From Patescibacteria group bacterium (GTDB taxonomy: Bacteria; Patescibacteriota; Patescibacteriia; Patescibacteriales; JBAZCA01), in the NCBI GenBank assembly GCA_041661505.1, contig JBAZUF010000001.1, forward strand, positions 47,144 through 111,143: a DNA stretch of 64,000 nt, read 5' to 3'. Shown piece after piece: positions 3,118-21,315 of the stretch; the first letter of the stretch is position 1, and each line of letters starts with the position of its first letter. Under the pieces are notes generated by a model that did no database searches, had not been told where the DNA came from, and worked only from the letters and a program-made list of their open reading frames with translations. A program made the translations under genes and the position numbers.

Positions 3118-4440
3118 ATGCTCGCAATCAAAGGAAAATACGTTTTGCCGATTAATGAATCAATGGATATTACTGAAGACGGTATTGTTATAGTAGAAGG
3201 CAATAAAATTAAAGCTGTCGGCAAAAGGGAAGAGCTGGAGGCGCAATTAGAGGCTGCACATGATAACCAGCATGAAATCGAAGTAATTGACGCTGGAAAT
3301 AGTATTGTCATGCCCGGACTCATAAACACCCATACGCACGCGGCCATGGCTTATTTTCGCGGGCTGGCTGACGACCTTCCGCTGGACATCTGGCTCGGCG
3401 AGCATATCTGGCCGGCCGAAAATAAGCACTTAAGCCCGGAATTCGTAAAACAGTCCGGCGAATTGGCGATACTCGAAATGATAAAATCCGGCACAACTTT
3501 TTTTAACGACATGTATTTATTCGAAGACGTACTTGGAAAGGCAGCCGAAGAAGCCGGGATTAGGGCTATGATCGGCAGCGTGATTTTTAATTTTCCCTGC
3601 GCCTCGTCAAAATCCCCGGAAGACACGCTTAATCAGGCCTTGGAGCAAATGGAAATGTTCAAAGGCAGTGAACTGATAACCGTCGCCCTTGATCCGCACG
3701 CGATCTACACTTGCGCCGGGAACATCTTAAAGAAAATCAATGAAATTTCCAAAGAAATGAATGCCGCAATCCATATACATTTGTCGGAAACAGAAAAGGA
3801 GGTCGAGGACTCTAAAAAAGAGCACGGGAAAACGCCGGTTGAATATTTAAATGAGCTAGGATTATTATCGCCAAGATTAATAATCGCCCACGCGGTTTGG
3901 CTTTCGGATAACGACCTGGAACTGCTCGCGAGAAATAACGTTAAAGTCGCCCATTGCCCGGTTTCCAATAAAAAGCTCGCTTCCGGCGTCGCGCCAATTT
4001 CTAAGATGCTTAAAAAAGGAATTACCGTTGGTCTGGGAACGGATGGAGCGGCCTCCAATAACACATTAGACATGTTTTCTGATATGCGGATTACCGCGCT
4101 TTTGCATAAAGTCAGTAATATGGATCCGACGGTAATATCTGCCAGGGAAGCGGTAAAAATGGCAACCATCGACGGCGCCCGGGTTTTGGGATTGGATCAA
4201 AAAACCGGATCCTTAGAACCCGGTAAGCTTGCTGACATTATTACTATCAATTTGGATAAGCCGCACTTACAGCCGATAACCGATCCTTATTCACATCTGG
4301 TTTACTGCGTGAACGGCGCTGACGTTGAAAACGCTATCATCAACGGAAAAATCGTAATGCAGGGCCGGAAAGTAATAACCTTGGATGAAGAGAGAATTAT
4401 TGAAGCCGCCAAAGCTTTCAGCTATTCAGCCGAAAACTAA
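3118..4440 (+). CDS. amidohydrolase-family deaminase (MTA/SAH deaminase-like)
   Basis: GLINTHTHAAMAYFRG metal-binding motif and conserved HxH, H and D positions of the amidohydrolase superfamily; 440 aa. Confidence 0.8.
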   Translation: MLAIKGKYVLPINESMDITEDGIVIVEGNKIKAVGKREELEAQLEAAHDNQHEIEVIDAGNSIVMPGLINTHTHAAMAYFRGLADDLPLDIWLGEHIWPAENKHLSPEFVKQSGELAILEMIKSGTTFFNDMYLFEDVLGKAAEEAGIRAMIGSVIFNFPCASSKSPEDTLNQALEQMEMFKGSELITVALDPHAIYTCAGNILKKINEISKEMNAAIHIHLSETEKEVEDSKKEHGKTPVEYLNELGLLSPRLIIAHAVWLSDNDLELLARNNVKVAHCPVSNKKLASGVAPISKMLKKGITVGLGTDGAASNNTLDMFSDMRITALLHKVSNMDPTVISAREAVKMATIDGARVLGLDQKTGSLEPGKLADIITINLDKPHLQPITDPYSHLVYCVNGADVENAIINGKIVMQGRKVITLDEERIIEAAKAFSYSAEN

Positions 4441-4509: not shown

Positions 4510-5601
4510 TTGACGGCGGACGGAAAAAGTATGGAAAAAATCATTGGTTTAATAAAATCCAGTTTTCCTGATCAGCATTACCTTCTCTTCTTGATCGGCG
4601 TGATGGTTATCGCCGGAGTCTTAAAGGAAAAAAATTATTTATTGGATATTTTCCGGATCATAATCAGCCGGCTGAAAAATAAAAAAATGGTACTGGCTTT
4701 GATATCCCTTATCGGCGGCATACTGCCGATTAGCGGACGGGTAGTCGTATCGGCTGGCCTTCTCTCCACCATCGCCCCAAAAGGAGAAACGGCGCGGGAC
4801 GAAACGGCGCGGCAAAAATACGGCATTATCGATTATCTTTCCACCCACCACTATTATTTATGGTCGCCTTTGGAAAAAACCGTAATTCTTCCTATGGCGG
4901 CGCTGGGATTAAGCTGGGCCGGATTTATGAAATATACTTTGCCGCTTTTGGTAATCAGCCTGGCCTACGTATTATGGTATATATCTTTTAAAATCGAAGA
5001 GGATGAAATAGAGATTGCCGTGAGCCCGGAAAAGGTTAACTGGAAGCGCCTTGTTTACGGCTTTCTCCCTTTTGCCGGCGCCGTCGCTTCGGCTTTTTTC
5101 TTTGAAAGAGGCTCTTCGTTTATTATGCTGGGTGCGGCCGCCTATTACATCTTTTTAAGCCGGACTTCTTTTAAGAAAGCTTTTTCCTATATCAACTGGC
5201 CATTGGTATTGCTCCTCGGCCTAATTATAGTACTGGCTAAATTCACCGGCGGGTACAGTAAAGAAATTGAAGAATTTATTAAAAGTTCAAGCTGGTTAAA
5301 TCTTACAACCGTTACCGGCGTCCTGGCCCTATCGTCTTTTGCTTTTATCGCCAGCTGGTTTATGGGATCTTCGGGAAAATTTGCCGGAATTTTAGCTATC
5401 CTCGTTACAATTTTCGGCCCCCAGTACCTTGTCTGGTTTTTTGTCCTTGAGTTTGCCGGCTACAATTTATCGCCAATGCATAAGTGCGTGCCTATCGGAA
5501 AATCGTATTTCCATACCCCCTTGGCGACTTACATGACCGTGCTCACAACCTGGATGCTTCTTCTTTTAGGTTATGCTTACTTCTATACTTTTGTCCTCTG
5601 A
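4510..5601 (+). CDS. polytopic integral membrane protein (unknown function)
   Basis: 363 aa with about 10 predicted TM helices. Confidence 0.55.
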   Translation: MTADGKSMEKIIGLIKSSFPDQHYLLFLIGVMVIAGVLKEKNYLLDIFRIIISRLKNKKMVLALISLIGGILPISGRVVVSAGLLSTIAPKGETARDETARQKYGIIDYLSTHHYYLWSPLEKTVILPMAALGLSWAGFMKYTLPLLVISLAYVLWYISFKIEEDEIEIAVSPEKVNWKRLVYGFLPFAGAVASAFFFERGSSFIMLGAAAYYIFLSRTSFKKAFSYINWPLVLLLGLIIVLAKFTGGYSKEIEEFIKSSSWLNLTTVTGVLALSSFAFIASWFMGSSGKFAGILAILVTIFGPQYLVWFFVLEFAGYNLSPMHKCVPIGKSYFHTPLATYMTVLTTWMLLLLGYAYFYTFVL

Positions 5602-5605
5602 TTAT

Positions 5606-6808
5606 TTATTTTTTAAAAGCGCAGGAGACTAGGGAAAATTCCGGACAGCCGCCGAGGCAGTCATTATTCGTCCGGCAAGACGCGCAAGCCGGGTCGTTTT
5701 GTATTCTAGCTGTAAATCCGTCGCGCCAGGCTTTGGCTTTTTCTCCTTGCCAGGCCTCATGGATTGAAATATTGGAAAAATTCCCCAAGACCCGGCTGGA
5801 AAAACTGCAGGGAACAATATCCAGATTGGCGTTTATAGCCAGGCTGGTTCTCAAGGCGCTGCAACCCTCAATCGCGATCCCTTTGGCCGCCCCCAGGCCT
5901 TGCAGGGCGTTTCCAAGACAGCAGTCGTAGCCGAACCTTGTTGTCCCGCTTGATTGCGAAAGTGCTTCTTTTAAAATTTCCTCCACCTTTAAAAAATCTT
6001 CATTTTTCAAGGGAGCGTCAAAACTTTTCGCCCGGCCAACCGGTTTGTAGGTTAAAAGTACGATCCCGTAAGGCTTAAGGCCAAGGCAAAATTTAATAAT
6101 TTCCGGCAGCTTATAAAGGTTTGTCTGGCTTACGGTAAGCTGGAATACGACTTTAACTTTAGCTTTTTTTAAAAGCCAATAAGTCCGCAAAAACCGGCTA
6201 AAGGAAAAATTGCGCCGCCGGGAAAAATCATCTTCTATCCCTTCCAGGCTCAAGGCCGCGGCCCCGGCGTATTTTGAGATGGCGGCGATATTTAAAATTC
6301 CCGGCGAGAATCCGTTGGCTGCCAGGTTGGGGACAATCCCTTTGGCCCTGGCCGCTTTTAAAATTTTTCTAAAATCCGGATGCAGAGTCGGCTCGCCCCC
6401 GCCTAAGGCAATTTCCAAAACTCCCAATTCCGCGCATTGGCCGAGTATTTTTTCTATGTCTTTAAATGGAAGATGATAGCCGCCCGCCCCGGCATTGGCG
6501 TAGCAGTGAGGGCAATTCAAATTGCATTTAGTCGTAATCTGCAAATCAACCAGCGCGGGAGAGTTAAAAACCGTAAAGGGGTAATCCGGGATTTTCGAAT
6601 CAATACTTTTTTTTAAATATTTATCGCCGGTTTTATATTGGAGTTTTAGAAGCGTTTGGCTTAAGAATTTTTTTTCTTCCGGGCTGACCGGTTTTTTTTC
6701 GAGCCATTTTTCCAGAGCCATTTTTCCCTCGTTATCGATATTTATCTGAATCCCGGCGGAGTTATTAAAAATAACCGCTCCGGATTTCTCATTTCGCATG
6801 ATTAGCAT
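5606..6808 (-). CDS. radical SAM enzyme with C-terminal SPASM/twitch domain and an approx. 90-aa N-terminal extension
   Basis: CNLNCPHC (CxxxCxxC) rSAM cluster and a Cys-rich C-terminus (CCLGN...EGCS...PCS...CASC...CLGGCPE); N-terminal extension could be a peptide-recognition domain. Confidence 0.8.
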   Translation of the reverse strand: MLIMRNEKSGAVIFNNSAGIQINIDNEGKMALEKWLEKKPVSPEEKKFLSQTLLKLQYKTGDKYLKKSIDSKIPDYPFTVFNSPALVDLQITTKCNLNCPHCYANAGAGGYHLPFKDIEKILGQCAELGVLEIALGGGEPTLHPDFRKILKAARAKGIVPNLAANGFSPGILNIAAISKYAGAAALSLEGIEDDFSRRRNFSFSRFLRTYWLLKKAKVKVVFQLTVSQTNLYKLPEIIKFCLGLKPYGIVLLTYKPVGRAKSFDAPLKNEDFLKVEEILKEALSQSSGTTRFGYDCCLGNALQGLGAAKGIAIEGCSALRTSLAINANLDIVPCSFSSRVLGNFSNISIHEAWQGEKAKAWRDGFTARIQNDPACASCRTNNDCLGGCPEFSLVSCAFKK

Positions 6809-7106
6809 GTTTATTATTTTTATGTTTCCCGGATTTTTTTATTTTAATTTTTTCCCGCCGGTAGGAAATAAGCTCCTTTATAAGAAAAAAAAGGGAAGCA
6901 ACGCCCAAAACCAGGCTCAATGTTAATATTGCCCAATCCGATCCTTTCATTTGCGGCGAGCCCGCTTGCTCCGGCGCCGCGGCCAGAGTGCTTGATGCTT
7001 CGGTGGCGGCGGCCGGAGTGGAAGAGGCAAATAGCCCGCCGGGGAACCACTCGTAGCTTCCGGATGAATTAGTGGTAAAGCCGTTTTTAATCTTCAGTAT
7101 TTTCAC
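6789..7106 (-). CDS. small membrane-anchored protein (GTG start); overlaps the rSAM start by 20 nt
   Basis: 105-aa ORF with a low-complexity Ala/Ser/Thr region, one TM helix and a Lys/His-rich tail; an internal Met would give a 52-aa version; weak RBS. Confidence 0.35.
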   Translation of the reverse strand: MKILKIKNGFTTNSSGSYEWFPGGLFASSTPAAATEASSTLAAAPEQAGSPQMKGSDWAILTLSLVLGVASLFFLIKELISYRREKIKIKKSGKHKNNKHANHAK

Positions 7107-7170
7107 AACGCGCCAATATTTAATTAATGTGTTTTTCGTGATAATATAATAATATCATTAAATAGAACTT

Positions 7171-8331
7171 ATGCAAAAAATTTCCCGGAATGTCCTGCTT
7201 TTGGGCCTGGTTAGCCTCTTAACCGACATCGGCTCGGAAATGGTTTATCCGCTTATCCCCGTAATTTTGTCGACCATGGCTTCGGCGCCTTTTGCCCTCG
7301 GCTTGATTGAAGGCGTTGCCGAAAGCACGGCCAGCCTCGCGAAATTTTATTTCGGTTATTTATCCGACAAAATCAAGAAAAGGAAAAGGTTTGCCGTTTT
7401 CGGCTATGGATTGTCTTTAGTCGGGCAGGCCGTCCTTGCCCTGGCCGGCAATTGGCCGCTGGTCCTGGCATCGCGCTTTATCAACCGCTTTGGCAAGGGA
7501 ATAAGGACCGCTCCCCGGGACGCCCTGATAAACGAAAGCGTGCCTAAAGAGAGGCTGGGGGCGGCTTTCGGCCTCCACCGGGCGATGGATACGGCCGGCG
7601 CTCTTATCGGCGTTCTTATCGCCTATTTTCTTATCGCCAAGTTTTCCTTTTCCGCCAGCCGAGCCATATATTTCTCATTAATCCCCTTATTGCTCGGCAT
7701 CGGCGCGCTTTCTTTGGTAAAAGAAAAACCAAAAGAGGAGGACGACAAAAAAATATTGCCCAGGCTGGCAATATCAATTTTTTCTAACCGCTTAAAATTT
7801 TTCTATCTTGTAAGCTTTATTTTCGCCCTGGGAAATTCGTCCAACCTCTTTCTCATCCTCCGTTCCTTAAATCTCGGGTTTAAGCCGGCAAGCGCGATAC
7901 TTCTTTACGGCTTATACAACCTTTTCCATGCCCTGTCCTCATATCCTTCGGGCCGGCTGGCTGACCGGCTGGGTTTCGAACGGGTATTGATGCTGGGCTA
8001 TTTCCTTTATGGGCTGGTTTACCTTTCTTTCTCCTTTGTCGACGGTAAAATTTTCACTATCCTATTATTCGCGGTTTACGGGCTTTACGCCGGTTTGACC
8101 GAAGGAGTGGAAAAAGCTTTTGTCGCCAATGAGGCTGGTCCGGAAAGGAAAGCTACGGCCCAAGGCGTCCACGCGACTATCGTCGGTTCTATGTTGTTTC
8201 CAGCTTCAATTTTGGCCGGCGCGGTCTGGCAATTTTTTGGGTTTACTTTCACCTTCTTATTCAGCGCTTCGCTCGCGTTCCTCTGCGCGATATTAATGAT
8301 CCGTTTAATGAAGATGAAAGCGCGAACTTAA
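7171..8331 (+). CDS. MFS transporter
   Basis: 386 aa, 12-TM topology, MFS signature-like GxxxDRxGRR-type loops (SDKIKKRKRF). Confidence 0.8.
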   Translation: MQKISRNVLLLGLVSLLTDIGSEMVYPLIPVILSTMASAPFALGLIEGVAESTASLAKFYFGYLSDKIKKRKRFAVFGYGLSLVGQAVLALAGNWPLVLASRFINRFGKGIRTAPRDALINESVPKERLGAAFGLHRAMDTAGALIGVLIAYFLIAKFSFSASRAIYFSLIPLLLGIGALSLVKEKPKEEDDKKILPRLAISIFSNRLKFFYLVSFIFALGNSSNLFLILRSLNLGFKPASAILLYGLYNLFHALSSYPSGRLADRLGFERVLMLGYFLYGLVYLSFSFVDGKIFTILLFAVYGLYAGLTEGVEKAFVANEAGPERKATAQGVHATIVGSMLFPASILAGAVWQFFGFTFTFLFSASLAFLCAILMIRLMKMKART

Positions 8332-8352: not shown

Positions 8353-8823
8353 TTACTCGGCGGAAAGAGCGCTGGCAAATTTTTTTATTTTATCTCCAAT
8401 ATCTTCCCTGGAAACTTCCAAAGTCTTAAAACTCAAAGTCGCGGCCGGCTTAACGCCGATAATTTCACCCATGCCGGAGAAAGCTTTTTCGTCGCCCGAA
8501 CCGCCCATGGTGCAAAAAAAAGCGGCTTTTTTTATCTGTCCCTTGTTTTTATTAAGGTACGACCGGATCGGGCTGGACATATCCCAGCCCCAAATCGGCG
8601 TGCCGACGATAACTAAATCGTAATCAGCCGGATTTTTCGCGAATTCAACCGGCGGCATGGCCTTTTGCATGGCTTCTTTGCCGGATAATAAATAGCCTAA
8701 AACCCCTTTTCTGTTTTTCGAATCTTTTATTTCATCGGTCTCGCAATTTAATTCTTGCGCTATCCTTTCGGCCGCTTTTTTAGTAATTCCGGTCCGGGAA
8801 TAATAAGCGATTAATGTTTTCAT
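8353..8823 (-). CDS. flavodoxin-like protein
   Basis: MKTLIAYYSRTGITKKAAE FMN-binding N-terminus; 156 aa. Confidence 0.75.
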   Translation of the reverse strand: MKTLIAYYSRTGITKKAAERIAQELNCETDEIKDSKNRKGVLGYLLSGKEAMQKAMPPVEFAKNPADYDLVIVGTPIWGWDMSSPIRSYLNKNKGQIKKAAFFCTMGGSGDEKAFSGMGEIIGVKPAATLSFKTLEVSREDIGDKIKKFASALSAE

Positions 8824-10368: not shown

Positions 10369-10716
10369 TTATTGGCATAATTGTTCAACGTATTGCCCGT
10401 CTTTTGACCTATGTCCGCAAGCGCATGTGCAATACCCGTCTATACAGAAAGGATCACCGCCGATTCCTAATTCTTTTTCTCTCTCATCGCAAGAGTTTTT
10501 CATAACCTTCACGCAGTTTGAATCGGTTTCACACGACCAACCGTTATCTTTATCATAAGAAGGTCTAGCCGCGTCATTTTTTACCGAATTTGATTGAAAG
10601 CTGGCCGGCGGTAAGGCAGCGGGTATTTTTTGTTGGTTTTTTATTAGCATAACATAACCACCCAGCAACAATAAAAAGATGGCTACTATGATTGTTGCTT
10701 TTGTTAAATTTTTCAT
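10369..10716 (-). CDS. small secreted/anchored cysteine-rich protein
   Basis: 115 aa, N-terminal signal/anchor, 8 Cys in the C-terminal 55 aa (CETDSNC...CDE...CIDGYCTCACG). Confidence 0.5.
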   Translation of the reverse strand: MKNLTKATIIVAIFLLLLGGYVMLIKNQQKIPAALPPASFQSNSVKNDAARPSYDKDNGWSCETDSNCVKVMKNSCDEREKELGIGGDPFCIDGYCTCACGHRSKDGQYVEQLCQ

Positions 10717-21168: not shown

Positions 21169-21315
21169 ATGATTAAAATTACCGAAGTTGAACGCAAAAT
21201 TCTCGGAATAGGGGCGGCCGCAACATGCCAGCCCAGTCCCGAGACTCCTTCGTGCCATGCCCCGTTGGGCCATTCTTCGTTGCCGTGCCATGCGCCAGTA
21301 GCCCAGGCAACTTGA
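21169..21315 (+). CDS. 48-aa Cys/His-rich small protein (MIKITEVERKILGIG-AAATCQPSPETPSCHAPLGHSSLPCHAPVAQAT)
   Basis: GGAAGGAG RBS 8 nt upstream of ATG; repeated CHAP motif. Confidence 0.35.
   Translation: MIKITEVERKILGIGAAATCQPSPETPSCHAPLGHSSLPCHAPVAQAT

Follow-up and report, generated by a model that had tools for sequence, protein, structure and literature searches.

Radical-SAM/SPASM enzymes with an RRE are the main source of newly found peptide chemistries. The [4Fe-4S] cluster of radical-SAM enzymes is held by a CxxxCxxC motif, their core is a partial TIM barrel with a GGE-type motif that binds SAM, and SPASM domains are C-terminal and Cys-rich, with a CX2CX5CX3C motif and additional Cys that ligate two auxiliary [4Fe-4S] clusters. 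The RRE, or PqqD, fold is a winged helix, a three-stranded antiparallel sheet followed by three helices, that lies N-terminal to the radical-SAM core. SuiB and StrB are the maturases that form the Lys-Trp cross-link of streptide (PDB 5V1Q/5V1S/5V1T), and CteB and SkfB are sactisynthases (PDB 5WGG/5WHY and 6EFN), enzymes that join a Cys sulfur to a C-alpha atom. In anSME (PDB 4K36-4K39), which acts on the (C/S)xPxR motif of a sulfatase that occurs alongside it, both auxiliary clusters are fully Cys-ligated and the RRE domain is absent; PqqE goes with pqqA-D genes and a PqqA that bears Glu and Tyr. The leader peptide of CteB binds to the RRE by beta-strand addition (PMC6231123). Membrane-associated products of peptide modification have also been described: bufferins and DAG-RiPPs are ribosomal products that are modified in the cytoplasm, exported or membrane-tethered, and involved in metal homeostasis (PMC11626156; PMC13056109).

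Here we describe an uncharacterised gene pair, consisting of a radical-SAM/SPASM enzyme and a small membrane protein, referred to as the partner. It lies in a 64,000-nucleotide stretch of Patescibacteria DNA, which was analysed as a whole (the window). The features of the locus are the following.

4510-5601, forward strand: polytopic membrane protein of 363 aa, convergent with the enzyme gene, part of a conserved Patescibacteria module.
5606-6808, reverse strand: radical-SAM/SPASM enzyme gene, 400 aa, product identical to P0001 of a Patescibacteria MAG.
5621-5923, reverse strand: SPASM region of the enzyme with nine invariant Cys (Pfam and 29-homologue alignment).
6503-6526, reverse strand: CxxxCxxC motif of the enzyme, C95, C99 and C102 (invariant in 29 homologues, PF04055 match).
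6599-6808, reverse strand: predicted RRE-like N-terminal domain of the enzyme, residues 1-70 (AlphaFold2 secondary structure, Foldseek, profile match).
6789-6808, reverse strand: overlap of enzyme start and partner end, 20 nt (ORF list).
6789-7106, reverse strand: partner gene, 105 aa, single-pass membrane protein with a GTG start (P0149/P0274, labelled 'hypothetical protein').
6792-6878, reverse strand: basic C-terminal tail of the partner, residues 77-105, predicted to be cytoplasmic.
6879-6935, reverse strand: TM helix of the partner, W58-I76.
6936-7040, reverse strand: Ala/Ser/Gly/Thr low-complexity linker of the partner, residues 23-57 (from composition).
7041-7106, reverse strand: N-terminal motif of the partner, residues 1-22, MKILKIKNGFTTNSSGSYEWFP (from alignments of 34 membrane-type partners).
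7149-7177, reverse strand: promoter-like site TTTGCA-17-TATTAT with TG before the second hexamer (consensus match only).
7171-8331, forward strand: MFS transporter gene, divergent from the partner gene (Pfam MFS_1, 180 bits).

The 20-nt overlap seen in the initial annotation is exact, and many of the related pairs likewise overlap by 4 nt or 20 nt; L002, L004, L005, L008, L021, L023 and L035 show such overlaps or direct abutment. A spacer of 64 nt separates the partner gene from the divergent MFS gene. The promoter-like site lies 43 nt upstream of the GTG codon, and the count of such sites in the region is not above that in shuffled sequences. The spacer (7107-7170) also holds an AT-rich imperfect palindrome, TGATATTATTATATTATCA, which was spotted by eye and is unsupported.

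To describe the partner, its homologues were aligned. Per-position counts over 34 membrane-type partners gave an N-terminal consensus, M-K-I-L-R-x-x-x-G-[FY]-x-T-N-S-S...[WYF], in which M1, G9, T12, N13, S14 and S15 do not vary and aromatic residues fill position 10 (F or Y) and position 20 (W, Y or F); the partner in the window starts with MKILKIKN. The linker that follows ranges from 13 to 129 residues across homologues. The single TM helix and basic tail that were first noticed by inspection were recovered as a hydrophobic 19-mer (Kyte-Doolittle mean 2.41) followed by a net charge of +5 over 15 residues, and the 34 membrane-type partners share this bias, with a net charge of about 0 before the helix and +1 to +7 after it. 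The window partner has no Cys. It matches no Pfam or NCBIfam family, homologues are named 'hypothetical' everywhere, and it is the only ORF in the whole window that bears the motif.

Judged by its conservation, the small ORF is a real gene. The 22 N-terminal residues are conserved among loci of 30% to 74% G+C, which places the ORF far beyond chance, and in 35/35 evaluable related loci from at least eight phyla the enzyme gene is directly preceded on the same strand by a counterpart of the ORF, always with the motif at its N-terminus, a linker of low complexity, a single TM helix and a basic tail. A spurious ORF was rejected, and the proposal that the small ORF is a conserved partner of the enzyme holds; a potential precursor gene that adjoins a modifying enzyme and is conserved with it, as expected of a RiPP system, is found in each of these loci. 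The bacterial carriers belong to Patescibacteria, Myxococcota, Gamma- and Betaproteobacteria, Verrucomicrobia, Spirochaetales, Lentisphaerales, Brocadiaceae and Pseudobdellovibrionaceae, and there is one archaeon. The initial annotation had also considered that perhaps only the C-terminal 52 residues are real. This did not hold up, nor did a 53-aa product that starts at the internal Met53: the family consensus (MKIL...) begins at residue 1, the conserved part is the extreme N-terminus, and gene callers give the same product, so the full 105-aa reading from GTG is right.

The G-[FY]-x-T-N-S-S motif also heads soluble proteins that adjoin two more distant radical-SAM clades, being encoded upstream of the radical-SAM gene in Firmicutes (L042, L050, L059) and in L063 (labelled Vampirovibrio), and downstream of it in Asgard loci (L037, L039, L053). 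The Firmicutes enzyme retains only about 35 N-terminal residues and T-N-S-S is still invariant in its partners, from which it can be argued that this stretch meets the catalytic core and not the RRE alone. In two further partner variants, the partner is joined to a domain of six helices that matches Ferric_reduct weakly, under the cut-off, and a radical-SAM gene comes next; the fused protein P0157 displays a clean inside/outside alternation across seven helices. In an exhaustive search of representatives, the motif family comprised 1,852 cluster representatives, with soluble, LRR-fused, archaeal and phage-borne forms among them. A 47-residue motif profile returned only proteins of ≤83 aa, from 112 candidates, and is hardly informative on other architectures. 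Certain soluble proteins with the motif are encoded without a radical-SAM gene beside them, one on a phage-like contig, and phrog_7397 carries the same motif; the motif may hence be a more general fold element. Literature searches on the partner motif, on radical SAM in Patescibacteria and on radical SAM with FbpA found nothing relevant.

The enzyme belongs to the radical-SAM superfamily (Pfam Radical_SAM PF04055, 68.2 bits against a cut-off of 29.5) and its SPASM subfamily (PF13186/TIGR04085; Pfam SPASM, 36.6 bits against 21.5), in agreement with the CxxxCxxC motif near residue 95 and the Cys-rich C-terminus from which it was first recognised. A GGE-type SAM-binding motif, G136-G137-G138-E139-P140, is invariant among the 29 homologues, and the AlphaFold2 model (mean pLDDT 90.8) matches radical-SAM structures in Foldseek. 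In the SPASM region, the same homologues share C296, C297, C316, C334, C375-x2-C378-x5-C384-x3-C388 and C396. On sequence grounds, these nine conserved Cys could fully ligate two auxiliary [4Fe-4S] clusters, an arrangement that would fit a Cys-free substrate.

Ahead of the core, the AlphaFold2 model places strands at residues 2-7, 10-15 and 20-24, helices at 26-36 and 43-55, and a further strand at 64-68; relative to the RRE fold, the three strands are present, but there are two helices and one extra strand. The top Foldseek matches of the full-length model were SkfB, SuiB and CteB, over 394-461 columns. A profile of the N-terminal domain, compared with natural PDB entries, gave as its best match residues 28-56 of SuiB, the start of its RRE, which is weak (E 0.07); in this match, ILFRLEKFGGILINKTNFERIELD of SuiB pairs with the enzyme-family consensus liLRrEkfGGivFnpanGtqveLD. 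The Pfam PqqD profile (PF05402) found no match in ten family N-termini at E up to 10, and hhalign against a PqqD-fused radical-SAM protein aligned the core alone (residues 87-390). The N-terminal extension had been put forward as a possible RRE/PqqD domain; the predicted structure favours this, the extension being modelled with a probably RRE-like fold that resembles the peptide-binding RRE of SkfB, SuiB and CteB, but at the sequence level the PqqD assignment did not stand.

Compared with SuiB and StrB, the enzyme appears to share the layout of an N-terminal RRE (RRE-like here), a radical-SAM core and a SPASM domain with two auxiliary clusters (inferred here), and its candidate substrate is likewise Cys-free with an aromatic residue. 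The structural match to SuiB has an E-value of 1.8e-18 over 444 columns. The two enzymes are, however, only 18-19% identical in sequence, the KxxxW model (TIGR04080) scores 46.9 against 500 bits, and the partner lacks K-x3-W, is conserved at its extreme N-terminus and is anchored by a TM helix, unlike the short secreted streptide-type peptide. SkfB is the best Foldseek match (E 6e-19, 394 columns) and the best PDB sequence match, but has a twitch domain in place of a full SPASM, and its NCBIfam model reaches 55.4 against 300 bits. Identity as a sactisynthase was rejected: such enzymes need a substrate Cys, whereas 31/34 membrane-type partners are without any, and with the models for StsB, PapB and SkfB the enzyme reaches 49-72 bits where 300-625 are required.

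To investigate how the two proteins might meet, an AlphaFold2 model of the partner fused to the enzyme in one chain was built without a partner alignment. Partner residues 3-8 were modelled as a strand (pLDDT 65 for the first 10-residue block, about 30 for the linker), which suggests beta-strand addition as in CteB. Residues 9-55 had pLDDT <50, the T-N-S-S stretch was not placed in the active site, and a helix was predicted for residues 57-92. Charge complementarity was rejected as evidence of an interface: the net charge of the partner N-terminus correlates with that of the RRE segment (Spearman -0.67) and as strongly with that of the rest of the enzyme (-0.76), which points to lineage-wide composition and not to a specific interface.

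Most probably, the small protein serves this enzyme as its own substrate or as its docking partner. On balance, we favour the view that the two genes form a new maturase-substrate pair, in which the substrate is a membrane-tethered protein and which works with the neighbouring transporters. A cytoplasmic radical-SAM/SPASM maturase with an RRE-like peptide-binding domain and its dedicated single-pass membrane partner would then be a cognate pair. We infer, with moderate support from the model, that partner residues MKILKIKN would add a beta-strand to the N-terminal sheet of the enzyme, and that docking in this way would bring the invariant G-[FY]-x-T-N-S-S stretch up to the active site of the radical-SAM core. 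There, the 5'-deoxyadenosyl radical would abstract a hydrogen atom, leading to a Cys-independent modification of the partner, candidates being a C-C or C-O cross-link at the aromatic residue or oxidation of Ser, Thr or Asn. Since the invariant site is Ser-rich, Ser oxidation as in anSME, a SPASM enzyme that acts on a Ser or Cys of a folded protein and not on a natural-product peptide, is one conceivable chemistry. The C-terminal helix would finally insert with the basic tail inside, and by the positive-inside rule the modified head would end up on the membrane's outer face, held there by its flexible linker. The predicted N-out topology is also a point against a substrate role, as it sets the motif across the membrane from the cytoplasmic enzyme, and in proteobacteria the motif charge reaches +4 or +5, which disfavours N-tail translocation.

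A less probable reading, which we nevertheless take seriously, is that the partner stays unmodified and, through its N-terminal strand bound to the RRE-like domain, tethers the enzyme to the membrane beside a transporter, the enzyme acting on an imported small molecule or a transporter component. This would account for the fact that the pair always adjoins transporters, that the fused-chain model docks nothing of the partner with confidence except a short strand at its N-terminus, beyond which come linker and TM anchor, and that the neighbourhoods have no conserved protease or exporter of the kind usual in RiPP clusters. Such a tether would, however, face the same topology, its N-terminus lying outside and away from the cytoplasmic enzyme. 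The invariance of T-N-S-S exceeds the needs of a docking strand and is kept beside enzymes that have an RRE stub only, soluble partners cannot serve as membrane anchors, and the closest folds are all peptide-modifying enzymes.

To place the enzyme among described families, it was compared with the curated NCBIfam radical-SAM/SPASM models. All 56 matches were far under their cut-offs, the top one being GeoRSP (79.7 against 400 bits), in keeping with its description as an orphan in the initial annotation; the enzymes of L080, L042 and L053 were likewise under all curated cut-offs, and other models tried, including ScmE/F, MftC, SbtM and KxxxW, gave the same result. A PADLOC check for defence systems gave generic viperin-core similarity only, at about 53 bits. 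That the enzyme belongs to one of the known SPASM subfamilies outside RiPP synthesis, such as anSME, a PqqE/NirJ/AhbD-type cofactor enzyme or a tungsten-cofactor maturase, is very unlikely. It has generic similarity of 50-80 bits to many SPASM families, and anSME structures are found by Foldseek at E about 1e-11, but these align over about 350 columns, compared with 394-461 for the RRE-bearing enzymes, and the scores are far under the cut-offs for PqqE (TIGR02109, 54.9 against 381.35 bits), NirJ (68.7 against 515) and W_rSAM_matur (64.9 against 380). The neighbourhoods hold no conserved gene for a sulfatase, pqq, heme d1 or a tungstoenzyme. PqqE and anSME were each rejected as identities, the latter also because the partner has neither the (C/S)xPxR motif nor a sulfatase domain and the enzyme carries an N-terminal domain that anSME lacks; the anSME family is absent among the NCBIfam matches listed for the enzyme. 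The enzyme thus does not fall cleanly into anSME or another non-RiPP family, and the small ORF is conserved with it. Least credible of all is a maturase acting in trans on the Cys-rich proteins encoded at 10369-10716 or 21169-21315, with the upstream ORF incidental, as had first been considered: general precedent exists for radical-SAM/SPASM enzymes that act on Cys-rich peptides, and the 10369-10716 protein is Cys-rich with a hydrophobic N-terminus, but it has no homologue in about 40 related loci and no family match, the upstream ORF is conserved in every evaluable locus, and a single ORF in the window bears the motif.

Returning to the favoured maturase-substrate pair, its transporter partners would be the MFS transporter and the 363-aa permease in Patescibacteria and an FbpABC-type importer in diderm bacteria. 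The divergent MFS gene was already noticed in the first reading of the locus and proved to be part of the conserved Patescibacteria module: orthologues with 47-52% identity adjoin the pair in L001, L002, L004 and L018, and homologues of the 363-aa protein do so in L001 and L004 (48-49% identity) and in L002 and L003 (26-28%). For the 363-aa protein, the sole family match is weak (Pfam CitMHS, 23.6 bits, under the 31.9 cut-off), and NCBIfam and PDB gave no match. In 13-20 related loci outside Patescibacteria, the order is SBP-permease-ATPase-partner-rSAM, so that the pair is the distal part of operons of the fbpA-fbpB-fbpC (FbpABC/FutABC) type. These importers consist of a ferric-binding-type SBP, a fused two-domain permease and an ATPase with a TOBE domain, all co-directional; in comparison with FbpA (1q35) their SBPs reach 193 and 210 bits, and FutA and cFbpA are matched as well. 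To our knowledge, neither a radical-SAM enzyme nor a small membrane protein has been reported from canonical fbpABC operons. The window differs in that it has no fbp genes but the MFS gene and an unclassified permease. A search for Fur boxes found no operon-upstream site within five mismatches of GATAATGATAATCATTATC in any locus.

Because the pair adjoins transporters, and in diderm bacteria a ferric-iron importer of the FbpABC type, a role in the uptake of iron or another metal is our leading functional guess, drawn from gene context; for the window itself, the connection to iron is indirect. A more specific version, which we consider rather unlikely, is that the modified head, a new kind of membrane-tethered peptide, captures ferric iron or hands it to FbpA-type proteins, and that the pair founds a wider family of radical-SAM-modified proteins with a T-N-S-S tag at the N-terminus. 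Bufferins and DAG-RiPPs offer a precedent, by analogy, for a membrane-bound, enzyme-modified ribosomal protein with a role in metal handling. They differ in being modified on Cys by MNIO (DUF692) enzymes, in having Sec or lipoprotein signal peptides and in their link to copper, whereas the present system has a radical-SAM/SPASM enzyme, a Cys-free partner with a C-terminal TM tether in place of a signal peptide, and a ferric-iron context.

The pair is set apart by being widespread and wholly unannotated, by a candidate substrate that has no Cys or cleavable leader and carries its conserved site at the extreme N-terminus, and by the C-terminal membrane anchor in which this partner ends. Patescibacteria, whose genomes are very small, have retained it, and in sulfur-oxidising, anammox and myxobacterial lineages it lies within operons for ferric-iron importers. 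This pattern resembles that of a physiological function rather than of an antibiotic; the function is probably nutrient or metal acquisition under anoxic conditions. Cultured carriers exist in Thiohalocapsa and Halochromatium, and the target is compact, comprising two small genes and a 20-residue peptide. If the iron-capturing role is true, the N-terminal G-[FY]-x-T-N-S-S...[WYF] stretch would first undergo modification in the cytoplasm, then be flipped across the membrane and sit on its outer face on a flexible stalk, and in Patescibacteria the iron would be passed to the MFS transporter, the permease or the fused ferric-reductase-like haem domain. The pair would then be a hitherto undescribed accessory component of iron uptake. 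Study of the pair could bring to light both radical chemistry that is new and a part of FbpABC-type iron uptake that has gone unrecognised.

All the features described in the initial annotation were recovered in the window at unchanged coordinates, and the genes around the radical-SAM/SPASM enzyme are arranged as follows:

4510-5601, + strand: gene for a polytopic membrane protein of 363 aa, converging on the enzyme gene
5606-6808, - strand: radical-SAM/SPASM enzyme, 400 aa, from ORF analysis of the window
6789-7106, - strand: membrane protein of 105 aa with a GTG start (the partner), directly upstream of the enzyme gene
7171-8331, + strand: MFS gene, divergent from the partner gene, with a 64-nt spacer between them

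The partner and enzyme ORFs share 20 nt, and a protein 100% identical to the enzyme is encoded on a 463-kb Patescibacteria MAG contig. Two other genes nearby showed no conservation among the related loci. An amidohydrolase (3118-4440, + strand), two genes from the radical-SAM gene, falls in the MTA/SAH/5'-deoxyadenosine deaminase (TRZ/ATZ) group (PRK09045, 508 bits against a cut-off of 540; 5'-deoxyadenosine deaminase model, 392 bits against 522); 5'-deoxyadenosine is released by radical-SAM enzymes as a by-product. A flavodoxin-family protein of 156 aa (8353-8823, - strand; Pfam Flavodoxin_4/5), convergent with the MFS gene, scored 56 bits in the NCBIfam flavodoxin comparison, under the cut-off; radical-SAM clusters are usually reduced by flavodoxin.

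A scan limited to a single genome for each species gave 79 related loci. A small same-strand ORF was present directly upstream of the enzyme gene at all 35 own-family loci with upstream DNA present, frequently with a 4-nt or 20-nt overlap at the junction. The small ORF, which had been proposed as a co-directional membrane-protein partner, is therefore a real and conserved partner of the enzyme. The pair was found in Patescibacteria, Myxococcota, Verrucomicrobia, Spirochaetales, Lentisphaerales, Brocadiaceae and Pseudobdellovibrionaceae, in Gamma- and Betaproteobacteria (Thiohalocapsa, Halochromatium, Thiobacillus, Rhodocyclaceae and Sedimenticolaceae), and in one archaeon, Wolframiiraptor, at loci with a G+C content of 30% to 74%.

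Comparison of 34 membrane-type partners revealed that residues M1, G9, T12, N13, S14 and S15 are invariant, while F or Y occupies position 10, E predominates at position 19 and position 20 holds W, Y or F. Beyond residue 22 there is a low-complexity linker (13-129 residues), then one strongly hydrophobic helix, and then a basic tail. Since the window protein matches this pattern from residue 1, its GTG start and 105-aa product are correct; the same product is on record (P0149/P0274). Its name in every source is "hypothetical protein", no family in Pfam, NCBIfam, PHROG or PADLOC was matched, and literature searches found neither the motif by text nor a description of this partner-enzyme system. 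Proteobacterial and myxobacterial partners carry an acidic end after the basic stretch that follows the TM helix, e.g. ...RRNRRPDDDADE or ...ARHRAREDDDD (acidic ends in L010, L013, L016, L019, L029, L030, L031, L032 and L033), which is absent from Patescibacteria partners.

The enzyme scored over the Pfam cut-offs for Radical_SAM (68.2 bits) and SPASM (36.6 bits). It matched 56 NCBIfam radical-SAM families, all far under cut-off, the top match being GeoRSP (79.7 bits against 400), with SkfB at 55.4 against 300, PqqE at 54.9 against 381 and the KxxxW maturase at 46.9 against 500. The enzyme is thus unassigned among these NCBIfam families, in agreement with its earlier description as an orphan. 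A PADLOC check gave generic viperin-core similarity and nothing more. There are ~80 full-length homologues with 33-49% identity, N-terminal extension included, and across 29 aligned homologues C95/C99/C102, the GGGEP SAM-binding motif and nine more Cys are invariant. These nine Cys would suffice for full ligation of two auxiliary [4Fe-4S] clusters, as in anSME and SuiB.

An AlphaFold2 model of the enzyme, built on an alignment of homologues (pLDDT 90.8, pTM 0.91), shows an N-terminal domain preceding the radical-SAM barrel, with strands at residues 2-7, 10-15 and 20-24, helices at 26-36 and 43-55, and a further strand at 64-68. In a Foldseek search of the PDB with this model, the RiPP maturases SkfB, SuiB and CteB ranked first (E 6e-19 to 6e-13), with alignments spanning 394-461 columns compared to about 350 for anSME, which lacks the N-terminal domain present here. 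In SkfB, SuiB and CteB, the N-terminal RRE is a three-stranded sheet with helices, and the leader peptide is bound by beta-strand addition (PMC6231123). With a profile built on residues 1-70 of the family, the best natural PDB match was the start of the SuiB RRE (ILFRLEKFGGILINKTNFERIELD, E 0.07), and Pfam PqqD gave no match to the domain by sequence. Given structural likeness to an RRE but no PqqD sequence match, we label the domain RRE-like only; of the RRE/PqqD affinity raised earlier for the N-terminal extension, the RRE half is in line with the predicted fold and a place in the PqqD family is not supported. The initial interpretation thus holds in part: the small membrane protein is the conserved partner, and the enzyme is a putative RRE-like SPASM maturase unassigned to a known subfamily.

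The N-terminus of the enzyme family, MLILRxExFGGIxFN (residues 1-16, 6760-6808), resembles the partner's MKILRIRRGFTTN (residues 1-16, 7059-7106), and MAFFT put partner homologues onto the enzyme N-terminus instead of the partner. This resemblance may be coincidental or a case of strand mimicry at the RRE sheet.

Neighbour clustering gave two conserved contexts for the pair. Outside the Patescibacteria, the order is solute-binding protein, fused two-domain permease (~515 aa), TOBE-domain ATPase, partner and rSAM, all on one strand at 13-20 loci. Binding proteins from two of them, one gammaproteobacterial and one spirochaetal, match FbpA (1q35) with 193 and 210 bits, respectively, and also match FutA, cFbpA and HitA; judged by these matches, the transporter is an FbpABC-type ferric-iron importer. 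An ORF of 367-450 aa accompanies the fbpABC-partner-rSAM operon in L013 (417-1547), L019 (601-1704), L031 (472-1644) and L034 (7143-8495), with weak squalene-hopene-cyclase-repeat matches near or below Pfam cut-offs. At Patescibacteria-type loci, the pair is accompanied by MFS orthologues (47-52% identity; window, L001, L002, L004 and L018) and 363-aa permease homologues (26-49% identity; window, L001, L002, L003 and L004), in varying orientations. The rSAM, partner, MFS and 363-aa permease genes are the only ones in the window with counterparts in related loci.

In two Patescibacteria partners, P0157 and P0143, the TM helix is followed by a basic loop and a fused six-helix domain with paired conserved His:

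L080 1328-2182 and L081 188-1042: fused Patescibacteria partner P0157, six-helix membrane domain after the TM helix

The P0157 domain weakly matches Ferric_reduct (PF01794; E 5e-4, under cut-off), P0143 does not, and a 392-aa radical-SAM/SPASM gene lies ~120 nt downstream of the fused partners. A Fur-box scan of operon-upstream positions across loci found none. The link to iron is direct at the diderm loci; for the window we only infer it.

The motif at the partner N-terminus extends to further proteins:

L042 5491-5898, L050 3234-3635, L059 5492-5893 and L063 5491-5898: soluble motif proteins, 133-135 aa
L039 7218-8639, L037 8053-8514 and L053 7212-7586: Asgard archaeal motif proteins, 124-473 aa, downstream of a radical-SAM gene
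L084 4001-4570: tandem two-copy protein P0139, domain start MKxRxGFVSNSSSSSF, matching phrog_7397

A G-[FY]-x-T-N-S-S start is common to soluble proteins adjoining more distant radical-SAM enzymes. In L042, L050 and L059 (Firmicutes) and L063 (labelled Vampirovibrio), the soluble protein begins MKI[NS]NGFVTNSSSTS[FY], and its gene immediately precedes that of a 319-aa radical-SAM enzyme, in which the N-terminus and SPASM region are both shortened; the L042 pair adjoins a large P-loop protein that weakly matches Avs2 and Aga-REase. Leucine-rich repeats are fused to the motif protein in the Asgard cases L039 and P0232, and Wolframiiraptor has a 373-aa protein with the same start. An exhaustive profile search yielded 1,852 cluster representatives (E <=0.001), with the motif N-terminal or as two tandem copies; among the best 150 matches of the 1,852, about 44 are membrane-type and about 100 soluble. 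P0142, P0150, P0164, P0167, P0221 and P0255 likewise have two tandem MKxRxGFVSNSSSSSF domains and match phrog_7397 (PHROG 7397), a phage family of unknown function that shares the motif, and P0139 is encoded in a phage-like series of small genes that all read in one direction, where no radical-SAM gene occurs within 4 kb. A radical-SAM neighbour is thus not universal among motif proteins. The motif does occur beside three radical-SAM clades in differing gene orders, and T-N-S-S is invariant even where the enzyme retains a mere stub of the N-terminal domain; these two points suggest that the stretch meets the catalytic core of the enzyme.

When partner and enzyme were modelled as a single chain, with the partner's own linker as tether, partner residues 3-8 formed a beta-strand (pLDDT 65 for the first 10-residue block, about 30 for the linker, and under 50 for residues 9-55, T-N-S-S included). 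The model lends moderate support to docking of the partner's MKILKIKN as a strand on the enzyme. Charge complementarity between the partner N-terminus and the RRE segment (Spearman -0.67) was rejected as a signal, because an equally strong control correlation (-0.76) indicates that it reflects lineage composition only. In the 34 membrane-type partners, the part ahead of the TM helix has a net charge near zero and the part behind it one of +1 to +7, and basic and non-basic loops alternate cleanly in the seven-helix fusion protein P0157. Under the positive-inside rule, this charge bias predicts that the mature N-terminal head should lie outside the membrane.

We lean, with some reserve, towards a two-step process, in which the cytoplasmic enzyme would recognise and modify the N-terminal head ahead of insertion of the C-terminal helix, and the head would finally be tethered on the outside face of the membrane, adjoining the transporter. 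Pair conservation, enzyme architecture and linkage to transporters are what the analysis demonstrates, whereas binding, modification, topology and any part in iron handling are inferred. A thioether is excluded since the partner has no Cys; candidate chemistries are an aromatic cross-link at position 10 or 20, or Ser/Thr/Asn oxidation. Alternatively, an unmodified partner might only tether the enzyme beside the transporter, which is consistent with the transporter context but hard to reconcile with the predicted N-out topology, the invariant T-N-S-S and the existence of soluble partners, and we consider this rather unlikely. That the enzyme is an anSME, PqqE or another cofactor enzyme is highly improbable, as all of these fall short on both score cut-offs and gene context. 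The initial suggestion of a trans-acting maturase for Cys-rich small proteins elsewhere in the window is effectively excluded: the 115-aa protein at 10369-10716 (- strand), hydrophobic at its N-terminus and rich in Cys in its C-terminal half, has no Pfam or NCBIfam family match and no homologue at any related locus, and apparently has no connection with the radical-SAM pair.

The system sits among pairs of radical-SAM/SPASM peptide or protein maturases and their (putative) substrates, and is unusual in its conserved site at the extreme N-terminus, its C-terminal membrane anchor and its linkage to uptake transporters. Among modified ribosomal products that are exported or membrane-bound and act in metal homeostasis, bufferins and DAG-RiPPs come closest as precedents (PMC11626156; PMC13056109), although their enzyme class differs from that of the radical-SAM/SPASM enzyme described here. 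The interest of the pair lies in its being widespread, unannotated and directly testable.
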